DNA of 64,000 nt from a virus (lineage: Duplodnaviria; Caudoviricetes), in IMG/VR virus record IMGVR_UViG_3300026274_000001; one strand, 5' to 3'. The position numbers and the translations under genes are program-made. The notes under the pieces are model-generated. The model did not search any database. It was not told the DNA's origin and worked only from the letters and a program-made list of their open reading frames with translations. How positions within the stretch are numbered: the stretch's first letter is position 1; the number at the start of each line of letters is the position of its first letter. Shown here piece by piece: positions 28,749 to 41,978 of the stretch.

Positions 28749-28825
28749 GCGGCGTTAGCTCAGACGGATAGAGCACGAGCCTTCTAAGCTCGGGGTCACT
28801 GGTTCGAATCCAGTACGCCGTACCA
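28749..28825 (+). tRNA. tRNA-Arg (anticodon TCT), CCA encoded
   Basis: Cloverleaf: GCGGCGT/ACGCCGT acceptor, GCTC/GAGC D stem, CGAGC-CTTCTAA-GCTCG, ACTGG-TTCGAAT-CCAGT, ACCA. Confidence 0.97.
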
Positions 28826-33578: not shown

Positions 33579-34649
33579 ATGCGTAAACCCATCAATGTTC
33601 TAATCACCGGTGCTGCTGGCTTTATTGGTTCAGCACTTACTCACTACCTGGCGTATTTGGGCGGTTGTTATAAAATAACAGCCGTTGACAACGTTAGCTT
33701 TTCTGACCCTAGTTCAACTGCTCAGCTAGCCAAATTACGAGCCAAAACATATCTTGCTCCTGCAAGTGGTAACGTGACATATGACACTTGCGACATCACT
33801 ATACCTGAAGACGTTGAGCGAGTATTTTCATATGCTAACTTTGATGTCGTAGTTCATCTAGCCGCTAAAGCTGGTATCCGAGAATCACTCACTGATCCTT
33901 ATGCCTATGCCACCACGAACCTTGTGGGGTTCACCAATGTGATCGAAGCTGCCCGTAAAGCTAAAGTTAGACAGTTTATCTACGCATCATCCAGCAGTGT
34001 CTATGGTGCTGACAGCACATTACCGTTCTCTGAATCTGAACCAGCAAATAGCCCAATGAGTTTCTATGCCGCAACCAAACGGGCAAATGAAATGATGGCG
34101 TATAGCTATTCATCAGCACACAATCTGCATACAATCGGATTACGATTTTTTACAGTCTATGGTATGTTCAGTCGTTTAGACATGGCTCCATTTAAGTTTG
34201 CAGATGCTATTATCAATGAACGACCTATTGATGTTTACAATTACGGTAAGAATACTCGAGACTTCACTCATATATCGGAAGTGATACGATATATTGAATC
34301 TTCGTTTTATGAAATTCCTGATGACGATACTATTCCGGCAATCATCAAGAACGTTGGTAATGGTCAGCCGTATTCAGTATTAGAATTTATAGGTGATATT
34401 GAGCAGGCAGTGGGAAAGAAAGCGATTACAACCTTGATGCCACCACAAGTCGGTGATATGGAACATACCGCAGCATGCCAGAATGGCTTGAATGATCGAC
34501 AACGACATGTATTCGCTAGTAATGGGCTGTCACCTGAAGCCTATGTAAGTTGGAGAAGAGTGCAAATTCAACAGATGGTGAACTGGGTGAAATTATACCA
34601 ATCGTATAATAAGCCGCTCACACCAGCTGTCAATCTTCTGTTACAATAA
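33579..34649 (+). CDS. NAD-dependent epimerase (UDP-glucuronate 4-epimerase-like)
   Basis: TGAAGFIGS, HLAAKAGIRES, YASSSSVYG, YAATK, LRFFTVYG, RDFTHI. Confidence 0.92.
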   Translation: MRKPINVLITGAAGFIGSALTHYLAYLGGCYKITAVDNVSFSDPSSTAQLAKLRAKTYLAPASGNVTYDTCDITIPEDVERVFSYANFDVVVHLAAKAGIRESLTDPYAYATTNLVGFTNVIEAARKAKVRQFIYASSSSVYGADSTLPFSESEPANSPMSFYAATKRANEMMAYSYSSAHNLHTIGLRFFTVYGMFSRLDMAPFKFADAIINERPIDVYNYGKNTRDFTHISEVIRYIESSFYEIPDDDTIPAIIKNVGNGQPYSVLEFIGDIEQAVGKKAITTLMPPQVGDMEHTAACQNGLNDRQRHVFASNGLSPEAYVSWRRVQIQQMVNWVKLYQSYNKPLTPAVNLLLQ

Positions 34650-36783: not shown

Positions 36784-37020
36784 ATCTTCAAAGACATCCT
36801 TCCAGGCAGAATTAGACACTCCTATACGGAGTGGAAAGAGGTTTACCTTGAGAAACCGATTCAATATCGTGGTGAAACTTTGTGTCATGAAATGATATGG
36901 CACAGAGAGCATCGAATGATTGATAATTGCACAGTTACGATAGATGAATATTGGAATGTAGCCGATAAGTTGGCAGAACTTGAACCAGTATGTATTATGA
37001 GAAATTTGCAATTCATCTAA
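36784..37020 (+). pseudogene. Family C copy 5, no canonical start (pseudogene or non-AUG start)
   Basis: Open frame YTEWKEVYLEKPIQYRGETLCHEMIWHR after TAG 36775; AGGAG at 36776. Confidence 0.45.
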
Positions 37021-37042
37021 AACGAGTGTATAAATAAGATTA

Positions 37043-37065
37043 CAGTAAGCGATAGACGCGAACTG
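37043..37065 (+). promoter_or_regulatory. ATAGA-loop hairpin 1
   Basis: CAGT-AA-GCG-ATAGA-CGC-GA-ACTG, 25 nt before ATG. Confidence 0.65.
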
Positions 37066-37084
37066 ACAAATTAACATAGGAACT

Positions 37085-37492
37085 ATGTTAGCCATGACAA
37101 ACCTCTCCCGCTGGAACGCAGACTACGATCGATTCATCAATTCTTACAACGGCAAATCGCTGTTGAAAAGCCACGACTTGGCCGAAGTTGGTATTTGGTT
37201 GGTTCGCCCTGAAGAATGTGATCAAGGTGACGGTCGTCGCATCTACGGCCAACCTGATGTTGGCACTTTCGAAGGTGTACTTGAAGACATCATCCGTTAC
37301 GTCGTTCGCAAATCTGAATTCATCAACAATGCCGGCTGCGGTACCATCAGTAAAGTAAAAGAAAAAACTCAACACGATTTGGCATTGCCAGTCTATAATG
37401 CGCAAATAGCAGATAAGAAACGTCTGCTCCGTATTAGAGACGAGCTTAGCCAAATGCTAGTTGATTTGGATGAGCGTATATCAAAACTGTAG
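37085..37492 (+). CDS. Conserved phage protein, pair copy 1
   Basis: DYDRFIN.Y.G..LL..H.L.E.GIW.V..E..QPD.G.FEG.L.D.I. Confidence 0.8.
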   Translation: MLAMTNLSRWNADYDRFINSYNGKSLLKSHDLAEVGIWLVRPEECDQGDGRRIYGQPDVGTFEGVLEDIIRYVVRKSEFINNAGCGTISKVKEKTQHDLALPVYNAQIADKKRLLRIRDELSQMLVDLDERISKL

Positions 37493-37501
37493 TAACCGAT
37501 T

Positions 37502-37514
37502 GCGGATAGACCGC
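37502..37514 (+). promoter_or_regulatory. ATAGA-loop hairpin 2
   Basis: GCGG-ATAGA-CCGC. Confidence 0.65.
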
Positions 37515-37543
37515 TTTTGTGGTAAGCATAGGAATTATGTGTA

Positions 37544-37942
37544 ATGAGTAAGTCACTAAAAGATAGTCAAAAAGACTACGAACGTTTCATTAACTGTTAT
37601 TCAGGCCGAGAATTATTGGCGACTCATTCCTTGAGTGAAACTGGTATTTGGCAAGTATTTGGTGAAGATCCAAATTGCGATATGCAAGGGTCACACGTAC
37701 AGCCAGACTTGGGATTGTTTGAGGGTAAGCTGGATGACGTTATCCGTGAAGCAGTCAGTCTTAGTAATTTTTGGCAATGGGGTAGCGGCGGTCGTATTGT
37801 GAAAAAGACTACCCCAGTAGTAAAGAAAGTAAAGACTCAAACTGAACGTATGTCAGCTGAGTATGAAGAGCTTGTAGCAATGAAGGCCGAATTAAAAGCA
37901 GCACTGGCAAAAGTTGATGCAAAAATGAATCAAATCAAATAA
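37544..37942 (+). CDS. Conserved phage protein, pair copy 2
   Basis: GIWQVFGEDPNCD..QPDLGLFEGKLDDVI..FWQWGSGG. Confidence 0.8.
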   Translation: MSKSLKDSQKDYERFINCYSGRELLATHSLSETGIWQVFGEDPNCDMQGSHVQPDLGLFEGKLDDVIREAVSLSNFWQWGSGGRIVKKTTPVVKKVKTQTERMSAEYEELVAMKAELKAALAKVDAKMNQIK

Positions 37943-37945
37943 CAA

Positions 37946-37968
37946 CGAACGCCGATAGACGGCATTCG
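37946..37968 (+). promoter_or_regulatory. ATAGA-loop hairpin 3
   Basis: CGAA-C-GCCG-ATAGA-CGGC-A-TTCG. Confidence 0.7.
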
Positions 37969-37987
37969 ATTTAACTTCATAGGAACT

Positions 37988-39100
37988 ATGATGACAAACA
38001 TTATTACCCCAGCATCGCAACGAACCGACACAATCAACTTCATCCTGCGTGGGCAACCACAGCACATCGCGCATGAAAAGACCTTTCACGAAGCTGCTAA
38101 GCAATGCGGCACGCTGAACCTCATTTACGGTTGCGCAAACCAACCGCGCGATGATGCAGATCCCTTTTACCAAGAAGAACGTATTGAAGTCGGTAAGCGT
38201 ATTACTGCCAACTTCAAGCAAAAATACAACTGCGACGTGAATTTCCTGTCGGTCGAGAACAGCATCTACAACAATACCCAATGGGGTAACTGGGTTGCAG
38301 AAGCTGTTGCACCGTATGCACACGGTAAGGTAAAGCTGATCGGCCACAACAAGGACGATACTAGCTTCTATCTCAACATGTTCCCGCAATGGGGCGAACC
38401 TATCCTGCTGCCGCAATTCGACGTTCTGGATGCGAGCACAATTCGCAACCTGTACTTCAGCAAGAAAAACAACCTCGACTTCTTCCGTCATGTTTGCCCT
38501 GATGCGACTATCAGCTTCTTGGAAGAGTTCATGCACACTGAGGCTTACGACTACATTGTCGAAGAAGCCAACTACATCAAGAAGTACCGAGAACAAACCC
38601 GTGCTGGTCAAAAGTATGCACCTACGTTCCAAACGGGCGACGCAATTGTTATCAAGTCTAATCACGTTCTGATGATTCAACGCCGTTCCCAACCAGGCAA
38701 GGATCTGTGGGCATTCCCTGGTGGCTTCCTGCGTTCAGAAGATGAAATGGTCAATGGTGAATTGAAGAAGGCTGATCTTGACGTTGTCGATACTGCTCTT
38801 CGTGAACTTACGGAAGAAACTCGTATCAAGCTTCCGCCAGCACTGTTGCGTGGTAGCATTCGTGCTGAAAAGCGCTTTATGCACCCGAAGCGTTCCCGTC
38901 GTGGTCGCGTGACTACCACTGCGCAATTGATCGTTTTAGATGATTCGGAATATAAGGGTTTCCCGAAGGTCAAGGCGCGCGATGATGCAAAGCAAGCTGA
39001 ATGGGTTCACATGAACGACGTAAAGCGTCGTGAGTCCTTCGAGGACCACTTCGATATGCTGCTCTGGGCAAGGGCAATGACTTCTGACGTTCGACTTTAA
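37988..39100 (+). CDS. Bifunctional NMN adenylyltransferase / Nudix (NadM-Nudix, NatV-like)
   Basis: QP.HIAH, DPF...ER, LIGHNKD.TSFYL.MFPQW, ASTIR; Nudix AFPGGF..ALRELTEET. Confidence 0.93.
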   Translation: MMTNIITPASQRTDTINFILRGQPQHIAHEKTFHEAAKQCGTLNLIYGCANQPRDDADPFYQEERIEVGKRITANFKQKYNCDVNFLSVENSIYNNTQWGNWVAEAVAPYAHGKVKLIGHNKDDTSFYLNMFPQWGEPILLPQFDVLDASTIRNLYFSKKNNLDFFRHVCPDATISFLEEFMHTEAYDYIVEEANYIKKYREQTRAGQKYAPTFQTGDAIVIKSNHVLMIQRRSQPGKDLWAFPGGFLRSEDEMVNGELKKADLDVVDTALRELTEETRIKLPPALLRGSIRAEKRFMHPKRSRRGRVTTTAQLIVLDDSEYKGFPKVKARDDAKQAEWVHMNDVKRRESFEDHFDMLLWARAMTSDVRL

Positions 39101-39170
39101 AGCTTGCGAATGATCCCACACCCTGATAGATGGATCAACTGTGGATCGGGGATCGCAAAGAGGAGACAAA

Positions 39171-39350
39171 ATGGATGATTTACAATACATGACACGTCGC
39201 AACAATCTGCTGAGTGAGCGAGAACGTGCGCAACATGATCTTGATCGTATTAATCGCCGTATCGAAGAATTGGATACCGAAAAACGCGTTCAAGATAGGC
39301 AAGAAATGGTTATTTTGATGAAGAACACAAACCTCGCTCAAATTAAGTAA
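39171..39350 (+). CDS. Small coiled-coil protein
   Basis: GAGGAG SD before ATG 39171. Confidence 0.65.
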   Translation: MDDLQYMTRRNNLLSERERAQHDLDRINRRIEELDTEKRVQDRQEMVILMKNTNLAQIK

Positions 39351-39400
39351 ATTTTGCGAACTGGCACAGAAATGTTATAACCATATCTACTGTAATTACT

Positions 39401-39808
39401 ATGGTAGATATGGATGCAATGAAGAATAACAAACTCGTATTGGATGAAGACCTGAAGGAAGTGTTGCAGTATCCGCAAGTTCGTAAAGTAACTGAGCGCT
39501 TGCAACAACGGTTAGAAGCCAAAGCAGAACGTAAAGGAAAAACCATGAAGGGCACAGTTGCAGAACTTAAAAAGATGCTCAACAACATGAATGACCAAGA
39601 TCTAGTTGTTACGCCTTTTGGGCGAGAGCGAGATCAAGTCACTCAAGCTGTACCAACAATTATTGAAGTGCTTGCTTTTGGTAAGAAGCGTGTCTTTAAT
39701 GAAGAACTGTTGGAATGGAATGGCGATCCGCGTGAATATGGATATCCTGACATGAAAGCCCTACAGGCTGACGGTGGTAAAATTGTAAAGGCAATTGTAT
39801 TACGATGA
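39401..39808 (+). CDS. Hypothetical protein
   Basis: 135 aa. Confidence 0.7.
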   Translation: MVDMDAMKNNKLVLDEDLKEVLQYPQVRKVTERLQQRLEAKAERKGKTMKGTVAELKKMLNNMNDQDLVVTPFGRERDQVTQAVPTIIEVLAFGKKRVFNEELLEWNGDPREYGYPDMKALQADGGKIVKAIVLR

Positions 39809-40230
39809 AAGTAAAAACATTAGAACAGCATCGCCAAGCACTTGAAGATCTCAGTAACGGGCGAGACACTGGTCATCGATTGTTTGCAGTCTTTGATGCA
39901 AGAATTAAGAATATATCACTTGAAGAAGCACTTGAACGAACGGCAGTCGCGGTTAAGAATTCAGTAGACCTTTTGGTGCGTGATATTAAAGATGGTGTTG
40001 ATACCGCACTAATGATGGACATACTTGACGATGCTCGCAATTTATTGGTTGACTTAGCAAAAGAATATAATAAGCCACCCGTCGAATTTAAATTAGCACC
40101 TTGTAAAAATATTCCGCTTTCAGAAGAAGCAAAAAGATTGCAACACAACTATGTGGCCCAGAAAACGCAACGGGCTGATCGATTGAAAGACCTAGTTGCA
40201 AAGAATAGAGTTGGTTTTACTATGCTTTAA
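39805..40230 (+). CDS. Hypothetical protein
   Basis: ATGA overlap. Confidence 0.7.
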   Translation: MKVKTLEQHRQALEDLSNGRDTGHRLFAVFDARIKNISLEEALERTAVAVKNSVDLLVRDIKDGVDTALMMDILDDARNLLVDLAKEYNKPPVEFKLAPCKNIPLSEEAKRLQHNYVAQKTQRADRLKDLVAKNRVGFTML

Positions 40231-40295
40231 CCATATTTGGTGCTTGCACCAAATACTGGCAATGTTATAATTTGCCAGTGTAGTATTAAACCCAA

Positions 40296-40319
40296 GTCCT
40301 CGAGATAGACTTGAGGCAC
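40296..40319 (+). promoter_or_regulatory. ATAGA-loop hairpin 4
   Basis: CCTCGAG-ATAGA-CTTGAGG with a G-U pair. Confidence 0.7.
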
Positions 40320-40342
40320 ATTAACTTGATAAGGAATTTATC

Positions 40343-41857
40343 ATGATCACAACAAAACTTCTCAACGACAACTTCTGCTTGGCTGCAGATGCCTATAAGT
40401 TCATGCACTATGCTCAGCTCCCTAAGGGTCTGAAGTTTGTGCAGAGCAGCGTGGTTCCACGCAAACCCAACGCGCATACTGATATGCTGGTAACTGCCGG
40501 TATTCAATACCTTGCAAAGTACCTTGCAAGCGTGCGTATCGACGAACATGATGTCGATGAATTGGTGTTAGAAGCAGGACAACAAGGCTACGAAGTTAAC
40601 GAAGCTAGCTGGCGTGATATGATTGCTCGTTTCGGTGGTCGTTTGCCCCTTCGTATTGAAGCATTGCCTGACGGTACGGTCGTTCGCCCGAACACCGCGG
40701 TCCTGACTATTGTCAATACCGACCCAGCATTTTACTGGTTGCCCTCGTATGTTGAAACAGTCGTCCAACGTATTATCTGGAAGTTTATGACTGTTGCTTC
40801 GATCAGCCGCTCGCTTTACAGCTTGCTGATGCAATATGCAATCAAGACTGGTGCAAATGTGGATATGGTTGTATATCAACTCCACAACTTTGGCGATCGC
40901 GGTGCTGACGCCGACGAAGCTGCACAATGGGCGGGAATCGCCCACGCAATGGTGTTTTCTGGCTCAGACAATTCCCGCGCCAATCCAAATATCAAGCGTC
41001 TTTACAACACTAAGAAGGCCTACACCTCATCTGTCGATGCAACTGAACATAGCACGATGTGCGCTAATTCTGATGCCAAGACGAAGAATGACTACGGCGC
41101 TGCTGTAATGCTTGTTGAGCGTCTGGAAGAAGCGGTTCGTCGTGCAGGTCGTGGTATTGGTGTTCCCGTGGTTAGCGGCGTAGTTGATACCTACAACCCA
41201 TATCGTTTTATCCGTGACTACTTGGGTTCTCCCGAACTGAAGGCGCGTATCGAAGCGTGTGGTCGTGCAGGCGGTAAGCTTGTTCTGCGTCCTGACAGCG
41301 GTGTTCCAGAAATCGAAGTGCCTAAGATCCTCGAGATTGCAGGTGAAGTATTTGGTTTCTCGGTCAACTCGCTGGGTTACAAGGAACTGGTTCCATATAT
41401 CGGCGTGCTGCAAGGCGACGGTATTAATCAAGAATCAGTACCACGTATTTTGGTAGCAACTTGCGATGTAGCTCGCTGGTCGTTTGGTAGCTTCCTGTTT
41501 GGTATGGGTGGTGGTTTGGTGCACGAAGCTGGACGTGATGAATTCTCATTCTCACAAAAGGCAACGGCTATGACGTTCAATTCGGACCCAAGCGTTAATG
41601 GTGACTGGATTGATCTGTTGAAGGAACCTATTACCGACACCAAGAAGAAGTCACTCACTGGATACATTATCAATGTGAAGGACGCTGATGGCACTATTCG
41701 CAGTATCAATCGCAAGAACTGGTACGGTGAAGCTATCGTGTACAACACTGTTGTTTTTGAAAACGGTGAAGCATTTGTTGATGACGTCAACTTTGACGAT
41801 GTTAAGGCTCGTGCTGTTGAAGGCATTAGCAAGACGGAACTGAAGCTGGCTGCATAA
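40343..41857 (+). CDS. nadV: Nicotinamide phosphoribosyltransferase (NAMPT/NadV)
   Basis: ADAYKFMH, LHNFGDRG, ATEHSTM, VVDTYN, LRPDSG, LQGDGI, FGMGGGL. Confidence 0.93.
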   Translation: MITTKLLNDNFCLAADAYKFMHYAQLPKGLKFVQSSVVPRKPNAHTDMLVTAGIQYLAKYLASVRIDEHDVDELVLEAGQQGYEVNEASWRDMIARFGGRLPLRIEALPDGTVVRPNTAVLTIVNTDPAFYWLPSYVETVVQRIIWKFMTVASISRSLYSLLMQYAIKTGANVDMVVYQLHNFGDRGADADEAAQWAGIAHAMVFSGSDNSRANPNIKRLYNTKKAYTSSVDATEHSTMCANSDAKTKNDYGAAVMLVERLEEAVRRAGRGIGVPVVSGVVDTYNPYRFIRDYLGSPELKARIEACGRAGGKLVLRPDSGVPEIEVPKILEIAGEVFGFSVNSLGYKELVPYIGVLQGDGINQESVPRILVATCDVARWSFGSFLFGMGGGLVHEAGRDEFSFSQKATAMTFNSDPSVNGDWIDLLKEPITDTKKKSLTGYIINVKDADGTIRSINRKNWYGEAIVYNTVVFENGEAFVDDVNFDDVKARAVEGISKTELKLAA

Positions 41858-41882
41858 GCAGCAATGCGGGATGTAAAACGAT

Positions 41883-41900
41883 GAGCCCCAATTGGGGCTC
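41883..41900 (+). terminator. Palindromic terminator-like hairpin
   Basis: GAGCCCCAATTGGGGCTC, weak U-tract. Confidence 0.55.
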
Positions 41901-41978
41901 ATCGACCATTTGAGATTTCTACCACGCAAGCACAATAATTGCTGCTCTGTTGTTCCTTAATTTAACAACGAGAATGAC

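Follow-up and report, generated by a model that had tools for sequence, protein, structure and literature searches.

The NAD-salvage block of an uncultured soil jumbo phage raises the question of why four of its genes should each be preceded by a small hairpin with the same loop and a different stem, and at what level such an element would be read. The phage (Duplodnaviria; Caudoviricetes) is represented by IMG/VR record IMGVR_UViG_3300026274_000001, of which we analysed a stretch of 64,000 nt (hereafter the window). An original prediction, made from the letters alone, had placed four ATAGA-loop hairpins between positions 37,043 and 40,319, before two paralogous genes of unassigned function, a NadM-Nudix gene and a gene for NAMPT, and had proposed a phage post-transcriptional or antitermination regulon for the recycling of nicotinamide adenine dinucleotide (NAD). 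In the present study we found that each hairpin is the first of two in a leader of approximately 48 nt, that the second holds the Shine–Dalgarno (SD) sequence of the gene, that both stems covary, and that the same leader stands before NAD-salvage genes in other phages and in bacteria. On comparison of these sequences, the leader appears to be an undescribed cis-regulatory RNA family.

A two-hairpin leader before four genes

All four of the predicted hairpins, here called P1, were found on the + strand, with stem-closed G-ATAGA-C loops starting at 37052, 37506, 37955 and 40305, and both the spacing of 24–29 nt to the start codon and the TAAC..ATA(A)GGAA box behind each hairpin had been given correctly. 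The GATAGAC heptamer is not in itself enriched (six occurrences in the window against approximately 5.3 expected), and none of the other ATAGA sites in the window has a G-C-closed stem of at least 3 bp together with the downstream box. A motif scan and a covariance model of the whole leader (R2, see below), run with its filters off, agree with the earlier statement that the 64 kb hold no further stem-closed copy, as the four copies scored 35.6–48.2 bits and the next best match 11.6 bits. A degenerate copy that had been suspected at 39122–39132 was lost in this analysis: neither of our two models recovers it, its loop is closed by a G·U pair and it is not followed by a second hairpin.

The stems had been described correctly as far as their inner helices are concerned, but in fact they are longer: beyond an internal loop or a mismatch each has an outer helix that had been overlooked, for a total of approximately 23 nt. 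Similarly, the box after the hairpin is present as described, but it had not been recognized as the 5′ half of a second hairpin, P2. In the window P2 takes the forms CAUAG-GAA-CUAUG, CAUAG-GAA-UUAUG and UGAUAA-GGAAU-UUAUCA, the last of which recurs with covarying arms in the NAMPT leaders of relatives, and in each the SD motif GGA is placed in a loop of 3–5 nt. The start codon lies in the 3′ arm of P2 at genes 37085 and 37988, partly in the 3′ arm at gene 40343 and 4 nt behind it at gene 37544. P1 and P2 together form both the minimum free energy (MFE) and the centroid structure in three of the four window leaders (z = −5.3, −4.2 and −2.8). There is one copy per cistron and all copies lie on the sense strand. 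Their parts are as follows.

37043–37065, + strand: P1 of leader 1 (gene 37085); outer helix CAGU/ACUG, inner helix GCG/CGC, loop AUAGA; MFE and centroid structure, z = −5.3; covariance model score 40.3–43 bits
37071–37091, + strand: P2 of leader 1; core CAUAG-GAA-CUAUG, with the SD AGGAA in the 5′ arm and loop and the start codon (37085–37087) in the 3′ arm; from folding and covariation
37497–37519, + strand: P1 of leader 2 (gene 37544); outer helix CGA/UUG, inner helix GCGG/CCGC, loop AUAGA; covariance model score 35.6 bits; the centroid keeps the inner hairpin
37527–37539, + strand: P2 of leader 2; CAUAG-GAA-UUAUG, with the real start codon, 37544, 4 nt downstream; read from the sequence and aligned with the other copies in our alignments A5 and A8
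37946–37968, + strand: P1 of leader 3 (NadM-Nudix); outer helix CGAA/UUCG, inner helix GCCG/CGGC, loop AUAGA; z = −4.2; best covariance model score, 48.2–48.6 bits
37977–37991, + strand: P2 of leader 3; UCAUAG-GAA-CUAUGA, with the start codon (37988–37990) in the 3′ arm; from folding and covariation
40296–40319, + strand: P1 of leader 4 (NAMPT); CCUCGAG/CUUGAGG with one G·U pair, loop AUAGA; z = −2.8; covariance model score 35.7–39.1 bits
40327–40343, + strand: P2 of leader 4; UGAUAA-GGAAU-UUAUCA, the stem being closed by the A of the start codon (40343); from folding

In one metatranscriptome run (X7) position 37953 reads T for C, which turns a P1 C-G pair of the nadM leader into U·G, so that this population variant keeps the P1 structure. 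Pfam and PHROG matches upheld the targets that had been named for the four hairpins.

37085–37492, + strand: phrog_33851-family gene, paralogue A, 135 amino acids (PHROG E = 8e-13)
37544–37942, + strand: phrog_33851-family gene, paralogue B, 132 amino acids (PHROG E = 8.5e-23)
37988–39100, + strand: NadM-Nudix, of the bifunctional NMN (nicotinamide mononucleotide) adenylyltransferase/ADP-ribose pyrophosphatase type (Pfam NUDIX; PHROG 395, E = 2e-59)
40343–41857, + strand: NAMPT, a NadV-type nicotinamide phosphoribosyltransferase (Pfam NAPRTase and NAMPT_N; PHROG 448, E = 6e-116)

Covariation and distribution in phages and bacteria

The pairing of the leader was assessed with two models. R1, which contains P1 only, was used to align 34 copies, on which the structure of P1 plus P2 was then counted, and R2 is a covariance model of both hairpins. 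In a set of 19 copies P1 was 78% paired, with double changes in six of its seven pairs and an invariant closing G-C pair. In the 34 copies 81.6% of the cells were paired, compared with 55.4% in shuffles, 150 cells were doubly changed, compared with 62, and double changes were seen in 14 of the 15 pairs; the P1 share of such counts is inflated, because alignments A5 and A8 were fitted to models that contain P1. The covariation score of the 34 copies was 0.655, as against 0.208 for shuffles (none of 500 reached it) and 0.09–0.18 for slid registers. As P2 is absent from R1, its covariation is unbiased: pair 38–50 is CG in 14 copies, UA in nine and GC in five, and pair 37–51 is UA in 16 and AU in 11. 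Both helices also contain G·U pairs, which on the opposite strand would give C-A mismatches; as there are many, they fit an RNA only. The covarying stems, the G·U pairs and the constant sense-strand placement together bear out the earlier proposal that recognition takes place at the RNA level.

In a combined alignment of 53 copies, the only conserved letters were G-A-y-A-G-A-C, AGGA and one U. The P1 loop, A-(U/C)-A-G-A, is closed by G-C in 51 of these rows, the remaining two being low-scoring matches; the P2 loop holds GGA in 50 of the 53, with AGGA conserved in at least 90%, and the stretch that links P1 to P2 varies in length as well as in sequence.

The NAMPT of the window is at most 46% identical with that of the Rak2-like jumbo phages, a megablast search of the region against cultured phages gave no match, and single-protein scans of IMG/VR gave no close relative. 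Metagenomic relatives with NAMPT proteins 57–76% identical were found, among them contigs of 290 and 524 kb, and in all of those fetched the leader precedes the orthologous nadM-Nudix and NAMPT genes, with stems that differ and include G·U pairs (for example, AGCGG/CUGCU, GAAAUCUGG/CUGGAUUUC and CCCCGAAG/CUUGGGG). Run on five IMG/VR genomes of 290–524 kb, four of them rated complete, R2 returned two or three copies in each, clustered at the NAD locus, and every one directly precedes a gene for NadM, NAMPT or a phrog_33851 protein or, in one genome, a remnant open reading frame (ORF). By target, the 34 copies divide into 12 before NadM-Nudix, 15 before NAMPT, six before the phrog_33851 family and one before the remnant. 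Thus the covariance-model scan that had been suggested as a check found the association with nadM/NAMPT loci in other phages, and on these five genomes and 34 copies the regulon is indeed confined to NAD recycling. In a survey of 80 NAMPT loci from IMG/VR, the start codon could be assigned in 79, of which 17 have a leader of this type (11 distinct sequences), 11 a sister type (ten distinct) and 51 neither. Neither R1 nor R2 gave a match in the phages GAP32, XaC1, Vibrio phage 2.275.O, KVP40 and RSL1, and in Atu_ph07 and XacN1 there were chance-level matches only (22 and 20 bits, one of them intragenic).

The sister leader was found before both NAD genes of Vibrio phage 2.275.O, Xanthomonas phage XaC1 and Cronobacter phage GAP32, and more widely at Rak2-like jumbo phage loci (L010–L018, L041–L055 and L070 in our survey). 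It consists of a variable hairpin with a loop that is mostly GWUGUA, an A/U-rich linker and an invariant CUAAG-GGAGU-CUUAG. With up to one mismatch, this 15-mer occurs exactly twice per approximately 350-kb genome, at nadM-Nudix and NAMPT, in the three cultured-phage genomes that were searched whole, and the reversed 15-mer, used as a control, has zero occurrences. The sister leaders of the GAP32, RaK2, XaC1 and 2.275.O group share with the window leader the layout of hairpin, linker, hairpin with the SD in its loop and AUG, as well as the target genes, but differ in the GWUGUA-like P1 loop in place of AUAGA and in the invariance of P2, and R2 misses them. As intermediate combinations exist, with an AUAGA or ACAGA P1 joined to a P2 with a GGAKU loop (L026, L030 and L120), the two types can be regarded as one family in a wide sense.

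Bacterial NadM-Nudix loci were also fetched (contigs L113–L135), many of which are nadM–nadV operons. R2 places a leader before nadM, nadV or both at E ≤ 0.1 in Aestuariispira, Sulfurovaceae, Neptuniibacter, Marinobacter, Lysobacter and Stenotrophomonas, with weak matches in Aquimonas (E = 0.22) and in Xenophilus, Methyloversatilis and Caulobacter (E 0.9–2.9). Both genes of the operon carry it in Alpha-, Gamma- and Epsilonproteobacteria; in betaproteobacterial operons the two-hairpin layout can be seen by eye and the scores are weak (E 0.9–7.5). The P1 loops of the bacterial copies are GGAUAGACC, GGACAGACC or GGAAAGACC, and their P2 is G/C-rich. Among five whole bacterial genomes of 3.6–5.8 Mb, the nadM/nadV leaders are the sole R2 matches at E ≤ 1 in three, and the other two have no R2 match at this threshold; a separate, initial scan of genome contigs with the NAMPT profile gave no match. 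The element had been taken as specific to phages, a view that its presence before both genes of bacterial nadM–nadV operons overturns, and the leader travels with its genes between bacteria and jumbo phages.

The third kind of target was examined in the same way. Homologues of the phrog_33851 genes adjoin nadM or NAMPT in five relatives (L007, L009, L019, L020 and L023), distant contigs included, and in three of these (L007, L009 and L023) the homologue carries a leader copy of its own. At L002:8227–8282 (corresponding to L021:1234–1280) a leader stands before a 33-codon remnant ORF in the place of the phrog_33851 gene, which has evidently been lost with its leader kept. The family comprises 91 homologues with nearly invariant GEDPNCD and FWQWGGGG motifs, and its members have a conserved domain of approximately 85 residues followed by a C-terminal coiled coil. 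Structure models of the family were confident (AlphaFold2 predicted local distance difference test score of 88 for paralogue B, and 84 for a second model), and no structural analogue was found for the fold by Foldseek in the PDB (best E = 0.38) or in the AlphaFold Database clusters (best E = 0.14). VIA-align matched only the C-terminal helix when given the whole model and reached a best Z of 3.9 (PaaB, 59 residues) with the N-terminal domain alone, and the ESM Atlas gave nothing usable for this protein. The shared leader and the conserved position by nadM/NAMPT nevertheless support the family as a third member of the phage NAD module, and with it the earlier suggestion that genes 37085 and 37544 belong to the NAD regulon.

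Weighing how the leader may act

Rfam 15 gave no relevant match on the window at the gathering score, nor at E ≤ 10 on 36950–40400 or at E ≤ 1 on eight related loci, NAD+-I and NAD+-II included, so that the comparison originally called for turned up no family; in the open-access literature we found no described nadM/nadV leader. The NAD+-I (nadA motif) and NAD+-II (pnuC motif) riboswitches resemble the leader in being cis-regulatory RNAs in the 5′ untranslated regions of NAD-related genes, and NAD+-II, with a P1–P1a stem and a pseudoknot at the ribosome-binding site (RBS), acts on that site (PMC7749635). In contrast, the leader has two separate hairpins with no P1/P1a internal loop and no pseudoknot, and precedes other genes (nadM and nadV as opposed to nadA and pnuC) in other taxa; and inspection for an architecture of the NAD+-II kind showed no conserved sequence complementary to the SD or the P1 loop.

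Our preferred interpretation, which we hold to have an even chance of being right, is that the leader is a cis-acting mRNA element that controls the initiation of translation cistron by cistron, with P2 limiting the access of the ribosome and P1 read by a trans-acting factor, most likely a protein. P2 would limit the binding of the 30S subunit, and P1, located at the upstream border of the ribosome footprint, would be the recognition site of the reader, which would stabilize or relieve the block by P2 according to the NAD state of the cell. The reader would most likely be a protein borne by the module itself, NadM-Nudix or NAMPT, acting autogenously with its bound nucleotide as co-effector. 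That P2 encloses the SD and the start codon points to control of translation of each cistron, and since every cistron of a three-gene operon has its own copy abutting the SD, this control would be translational rather than transcriptional. Of the two levels first proposed, the post-transcriptional one is therefore indicated by P2, but antitermination is unlikely given a separate copy for each cistron at its RBS and the absence, in a consensus scan, of a + strand terminator at any leader or between it and its start codon. A protein is favoured as reader because conservation is restricted to the bases of a terminal loop, the linker varies freely and the loop is replaced entirely in the sister type; conserved unpaired bases restricted to a terminal loop, with a free linker, are typical of protein operators. 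Because none of the 23 bacterial nadM loci examined contains a phrog_33851 gene, its protein cannot be the general reader, and a host-specific reader is argued against by XaC1 having the sister type when Lysobacter and Stenotrophomonas chromosomes have the AUAGA/ACAGA type.

Protein-read operators provide the closest parallels for this interpretation. The Escherichia coli thrS operator of ThrRS, the T4 gene 43 operator of gp43, the MS2 coat-protein hairpin and the PyrR binding loop are all short hairpins with a sequence-specific loop and a freely varying stem, with the site at the 5′ edge of the RBS and repeated before each regulated cistron, and PyrR of Bacillus subtilis illustrates that a protein with a phosphoribosyltransferase fold can be an RNA reader. 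The leader likewise has a hairpin whose loop is conserved and whose stem covaries, next to the SD of the gene that it would regulate. However, its G-A(U/C)AGA-C loop matches none of the four and its reader is a candidate only, and it differs further in the second covarying hairpin at the SD, in being shared by bacteria and phages and in the tie to NAD salvage.

Several observations weigh against this interpretation. The inflation of the P1 counts noted above is one; in addition, the fold is not robust at gene 37544, where the MFE structure is ambiguous (z = −1.55), and one nadM copy (L009) is without P2. In AT-rich phages P2 is a weak A-U hairpin of 5–6 bp with GGA in its loop, and because GGA lies in the loop, P2 could present the SD instead of hiding it. 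The reader is an inferred candidate, and neither NadM-Nudix nor NAMPT is known to bind RNA. Finally, the invariance of the P1 loop across hosts, while the proteins diverge to 30–45% identity, would also suit a small-molecule ligand.

This last point leads to the main rival of the protein reader, a new class of riboswitch, which we consider unlikely: the bare leader would bind NAD+, NMN, ADP-ribose, nicotinamide or phosphoribosyl pyrophosphate (PRPP), P2 would shift and the RBS would open or close without any protein. Besides its near-invariant loop, the leader is tied only to NAD-salvage genes in phages and bacteria, moves with them between unrelated hosts, has in P2 what resembles a classic expression platform and matches no Rfam family. 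Small tandem-hairpin riboswitches with variable linkers do exist, guanidine-II (mini-ykkC) being one; it has two small hairpins, conserved loops and closing G-C pairs and a 3′ hairpin that overlaps the SD, and its loops are both ACGR and dimerize. The leader is like it in its tandem small hairpins, variable linker, conserved loop bases and closing G-C and in the 3′ hairpin at the SD, but its two loops differ from each other (AYAGA and GGAR) and we saw no loop–loop complementarity. What speaks against a riboswitch is that the conserved unpaired nucleotides are only a 5-nt terminal loop and the SD, with no conserved junction, bulge or linker; that inspection revealed no conserved complementarity of the P1 loop with either P2 or the linker, as a pseudoknot or kissing contact would require; that the AUCGA loops of L009 come without a compensating change; and that the swap to GWUGUA in the sister type is easier to picture through co-evolution with a protein. 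A more specific form of the idea, in which the leader would be a third and structurally minimal class of NAD-related riboswitch that senses NAD+ or a breakdown product (ADP-ribose or nicotinamide), we regard as a little more doubtful still. If it were true, nicotinamide salvage in bacteria, and in jumbo phages the NARP2-type counter-defence together with a third protein, would be turned on exactly while NAD is being destroyed.

In the window clade the letters AUAG of the P1 loop are those of the P2 5′ arm, and the loop could compete for CUAU. We dropped this pseudoknot or switch because the P2 arms of other clades are unrelated and the AUCGA loops of L009 are uncompensated.

Improbable, in our estimate, is a constitutive structural leader with no specific effector, in which P1 would be a 5′ or intercistronic stabilizer and P2 would tune or couple translation so as to fix low ratios of the enzymes. 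The first copy does lie a few nucleotides after a predicted transcription start, like known 5′ stabilizer hairpins, the P2 hairpins are weak and placing GGA in a loop might do no more than tune initiation, but a purely structural part would leave unexplained both why the P1 loop is nearly invariant in bacteria and phages alike and why, in genomes of 0.3–5.8 Mb, the leader is restricted to NAD genes. That restriction is equally unexplained if the leader is regarded as a CsrA/RsmA target. A GGA in the loop of a short hairpin that overlaps the SD, as such a target has, is present in 50 of 53 rows; the second GGA site, for the other half of the CsrA dimer, is lacking, as the P1 loop is AYAGA.

A processive antitermination signal of the nut/boxB kind, or an attenuation signal, acting on transcription is very improbable. 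P1 is a short pentaloop hairpin of boxB size, and a U run follows the NAMPT copies of some relatives. However, there is one copy per cistron at a fixed 24–29 nt before the start codon and joined to the SD hairpin, of the window copies only one shows the U run, which the GC-rich bacterial copies lack, and a consensus terminator scan found no + strand site at any leader or between leader and start codon. Lambdoid boxB has a GNRA-like pentaloop (of the GAAAA/GACAA type) on a 5-bp stem and occurs once in an operon, ahead of terminators that are then read through, and the leader is unlike boxB/nut in loop sequence as well as in placement.

Least credible of all is a site read in the DNA, whether a promoter element or the operator of NrtR or another NAD regulator, since, for all that P1 and P2 are inverted repeats in the DNA and nadM–nadV operons are known NrtR targets (PMC2330246), the arms vary freely between the copies of one genome around a conserved asymmetric centre, both helices hold G·T pairs, the orientation always matches that of the gene and neither a 21-bp palindrome nor a GT-N7-AC core is present. 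NrtR controls nadM-Nudix and nadV by NAD turnover (ADP-ribose) through a 21-bp DNA palindrome with a GT-N7-AC core (Rodionov et al. 2008, PMC2330246), so that its regulon has the same genes but is read from a DNA palindrome in place of an RNA structure with covarying arms and G·U pairs; as NrtR boxes the window copies were rejected, the arms of all four being different (GCG, GCGG, GCCG and CCUCGAG). At one bacterial locus (L124) the nadM–nadV operon is preceded by a divergently oriented Nudix gene that may encode NrtR; this is a point in favour of a DNA site, and RNA-level and DNA-level control may thus coexist. A reading of P1 and ATAGGAA as −35/−10-like promoter hexamers was rejected, because neither the A at −11 nor the T at −7 is consistent.

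Transcription of the block and meaning of the leader

Three features of the DNA around the leaders bear on how the block may be transcribed.

37029–37036, + strand: TATAAATA, a putative T4-late-type promoter box before leader 1, 12–14 nt 5′ of P1
40263–40271, + strand: TGTTATAAT, a putative extended −10 promoter box inside the inverted repeat TGGCAA..TTGCCA, approximately 25 nt 5′ of leader 4
41879–41904, no strand assigned: GC-rich hairpin after NAMPT, terminator-like on the − strand; a weak hint of the end of the transcription unit

The first box recurs at the same spacing in L007, L009, L021, L006 and L019, making six lineages with the window, and with only three copies of TATAAATA in the window, it is not a common background sequence. 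Leader 1 may therefore follow a T4-late-type promoter, which would put P1 near the mRNA 5′ end. The inverted repeat of the NAMPT promoter (40258–40277) has a counterpart in relatives (L021, L022, L004 and L006), TGCCA-N17-TTACAAT-TGGCA, approximately 30–60 nt 5′ of the NAMPT leader, and is a candidate operator or middle-promoter element; TGGCAA is also found beside a −10 box 5′ of genes 3436, 12804, 21335 and 34678. These transcription starts are putative, because contigs of RNA libraries cannot show 5′ ends. In three soil RNA runs the metatranscriptome covers the region from approximately 36.3–36.8 kb to 41868 as one contig at four to five times the depth of the flanking contigs, and the RNA contigs of all three runs end at 41868, where the DNA contig continues at even depth. 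These contigs hint, if weakly, at expression of the block as one unit ending at the hairpin at 41879–41904.

Elsewhere in the window, a family of sigma-70-like promoters (approximately cATTTaacgCTTGa..cATATGAAcgtATCAT-AGGAAC-ATGGTAAAC), many with a strong AAGGAG SD behind them, was seen at 54.7–62.2 kb and also 5′ of genes 17329, 18215, 42344, 43699, 46531, 48079 and 53756, and is probably the early promoter class of the phage. A nucleotide-sugar epimerase/dehydratase gene (33579–34649) lies a few kilobases 5′ of the NAD block, a position kept in L002, L004, L006 and L008, and a tRNA gene at 28749–28822 (68 bits) is the sole Rfam match in the window.

Depletion of NAD is a major antiphage strategy, and NAMPT with NadM constitutes a published phage counter-measure, NARP2, which consumes PRPP and is reported to be costly, and toxic when unregulated, in a study that mentions no RNA element (bioRxiv 10.1101/2024.02.11.579819). 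Under control of translation by a reader of P1, these costly PRPP-consuming enzymes would be made when NAD is low, for example after an NAD-depleting defence, and otherwise held back; in the searchable literature we found no description of such post-transcriptional dosing of NAD-salvage enzymes in phages or bacteria. The leader would add an uncatalogued family to the candidates for riboswitches or operators, and would assign a widespread phage-only orphan family, phrog_33851, to the NAD-reconstitution module. Being compact and portable, at 48 nt, it also offers an easily testable handle on this control, with cultured carriers among Stenotrophomonas, Lysobacter, Marinobacter and the Rak2-like phages.

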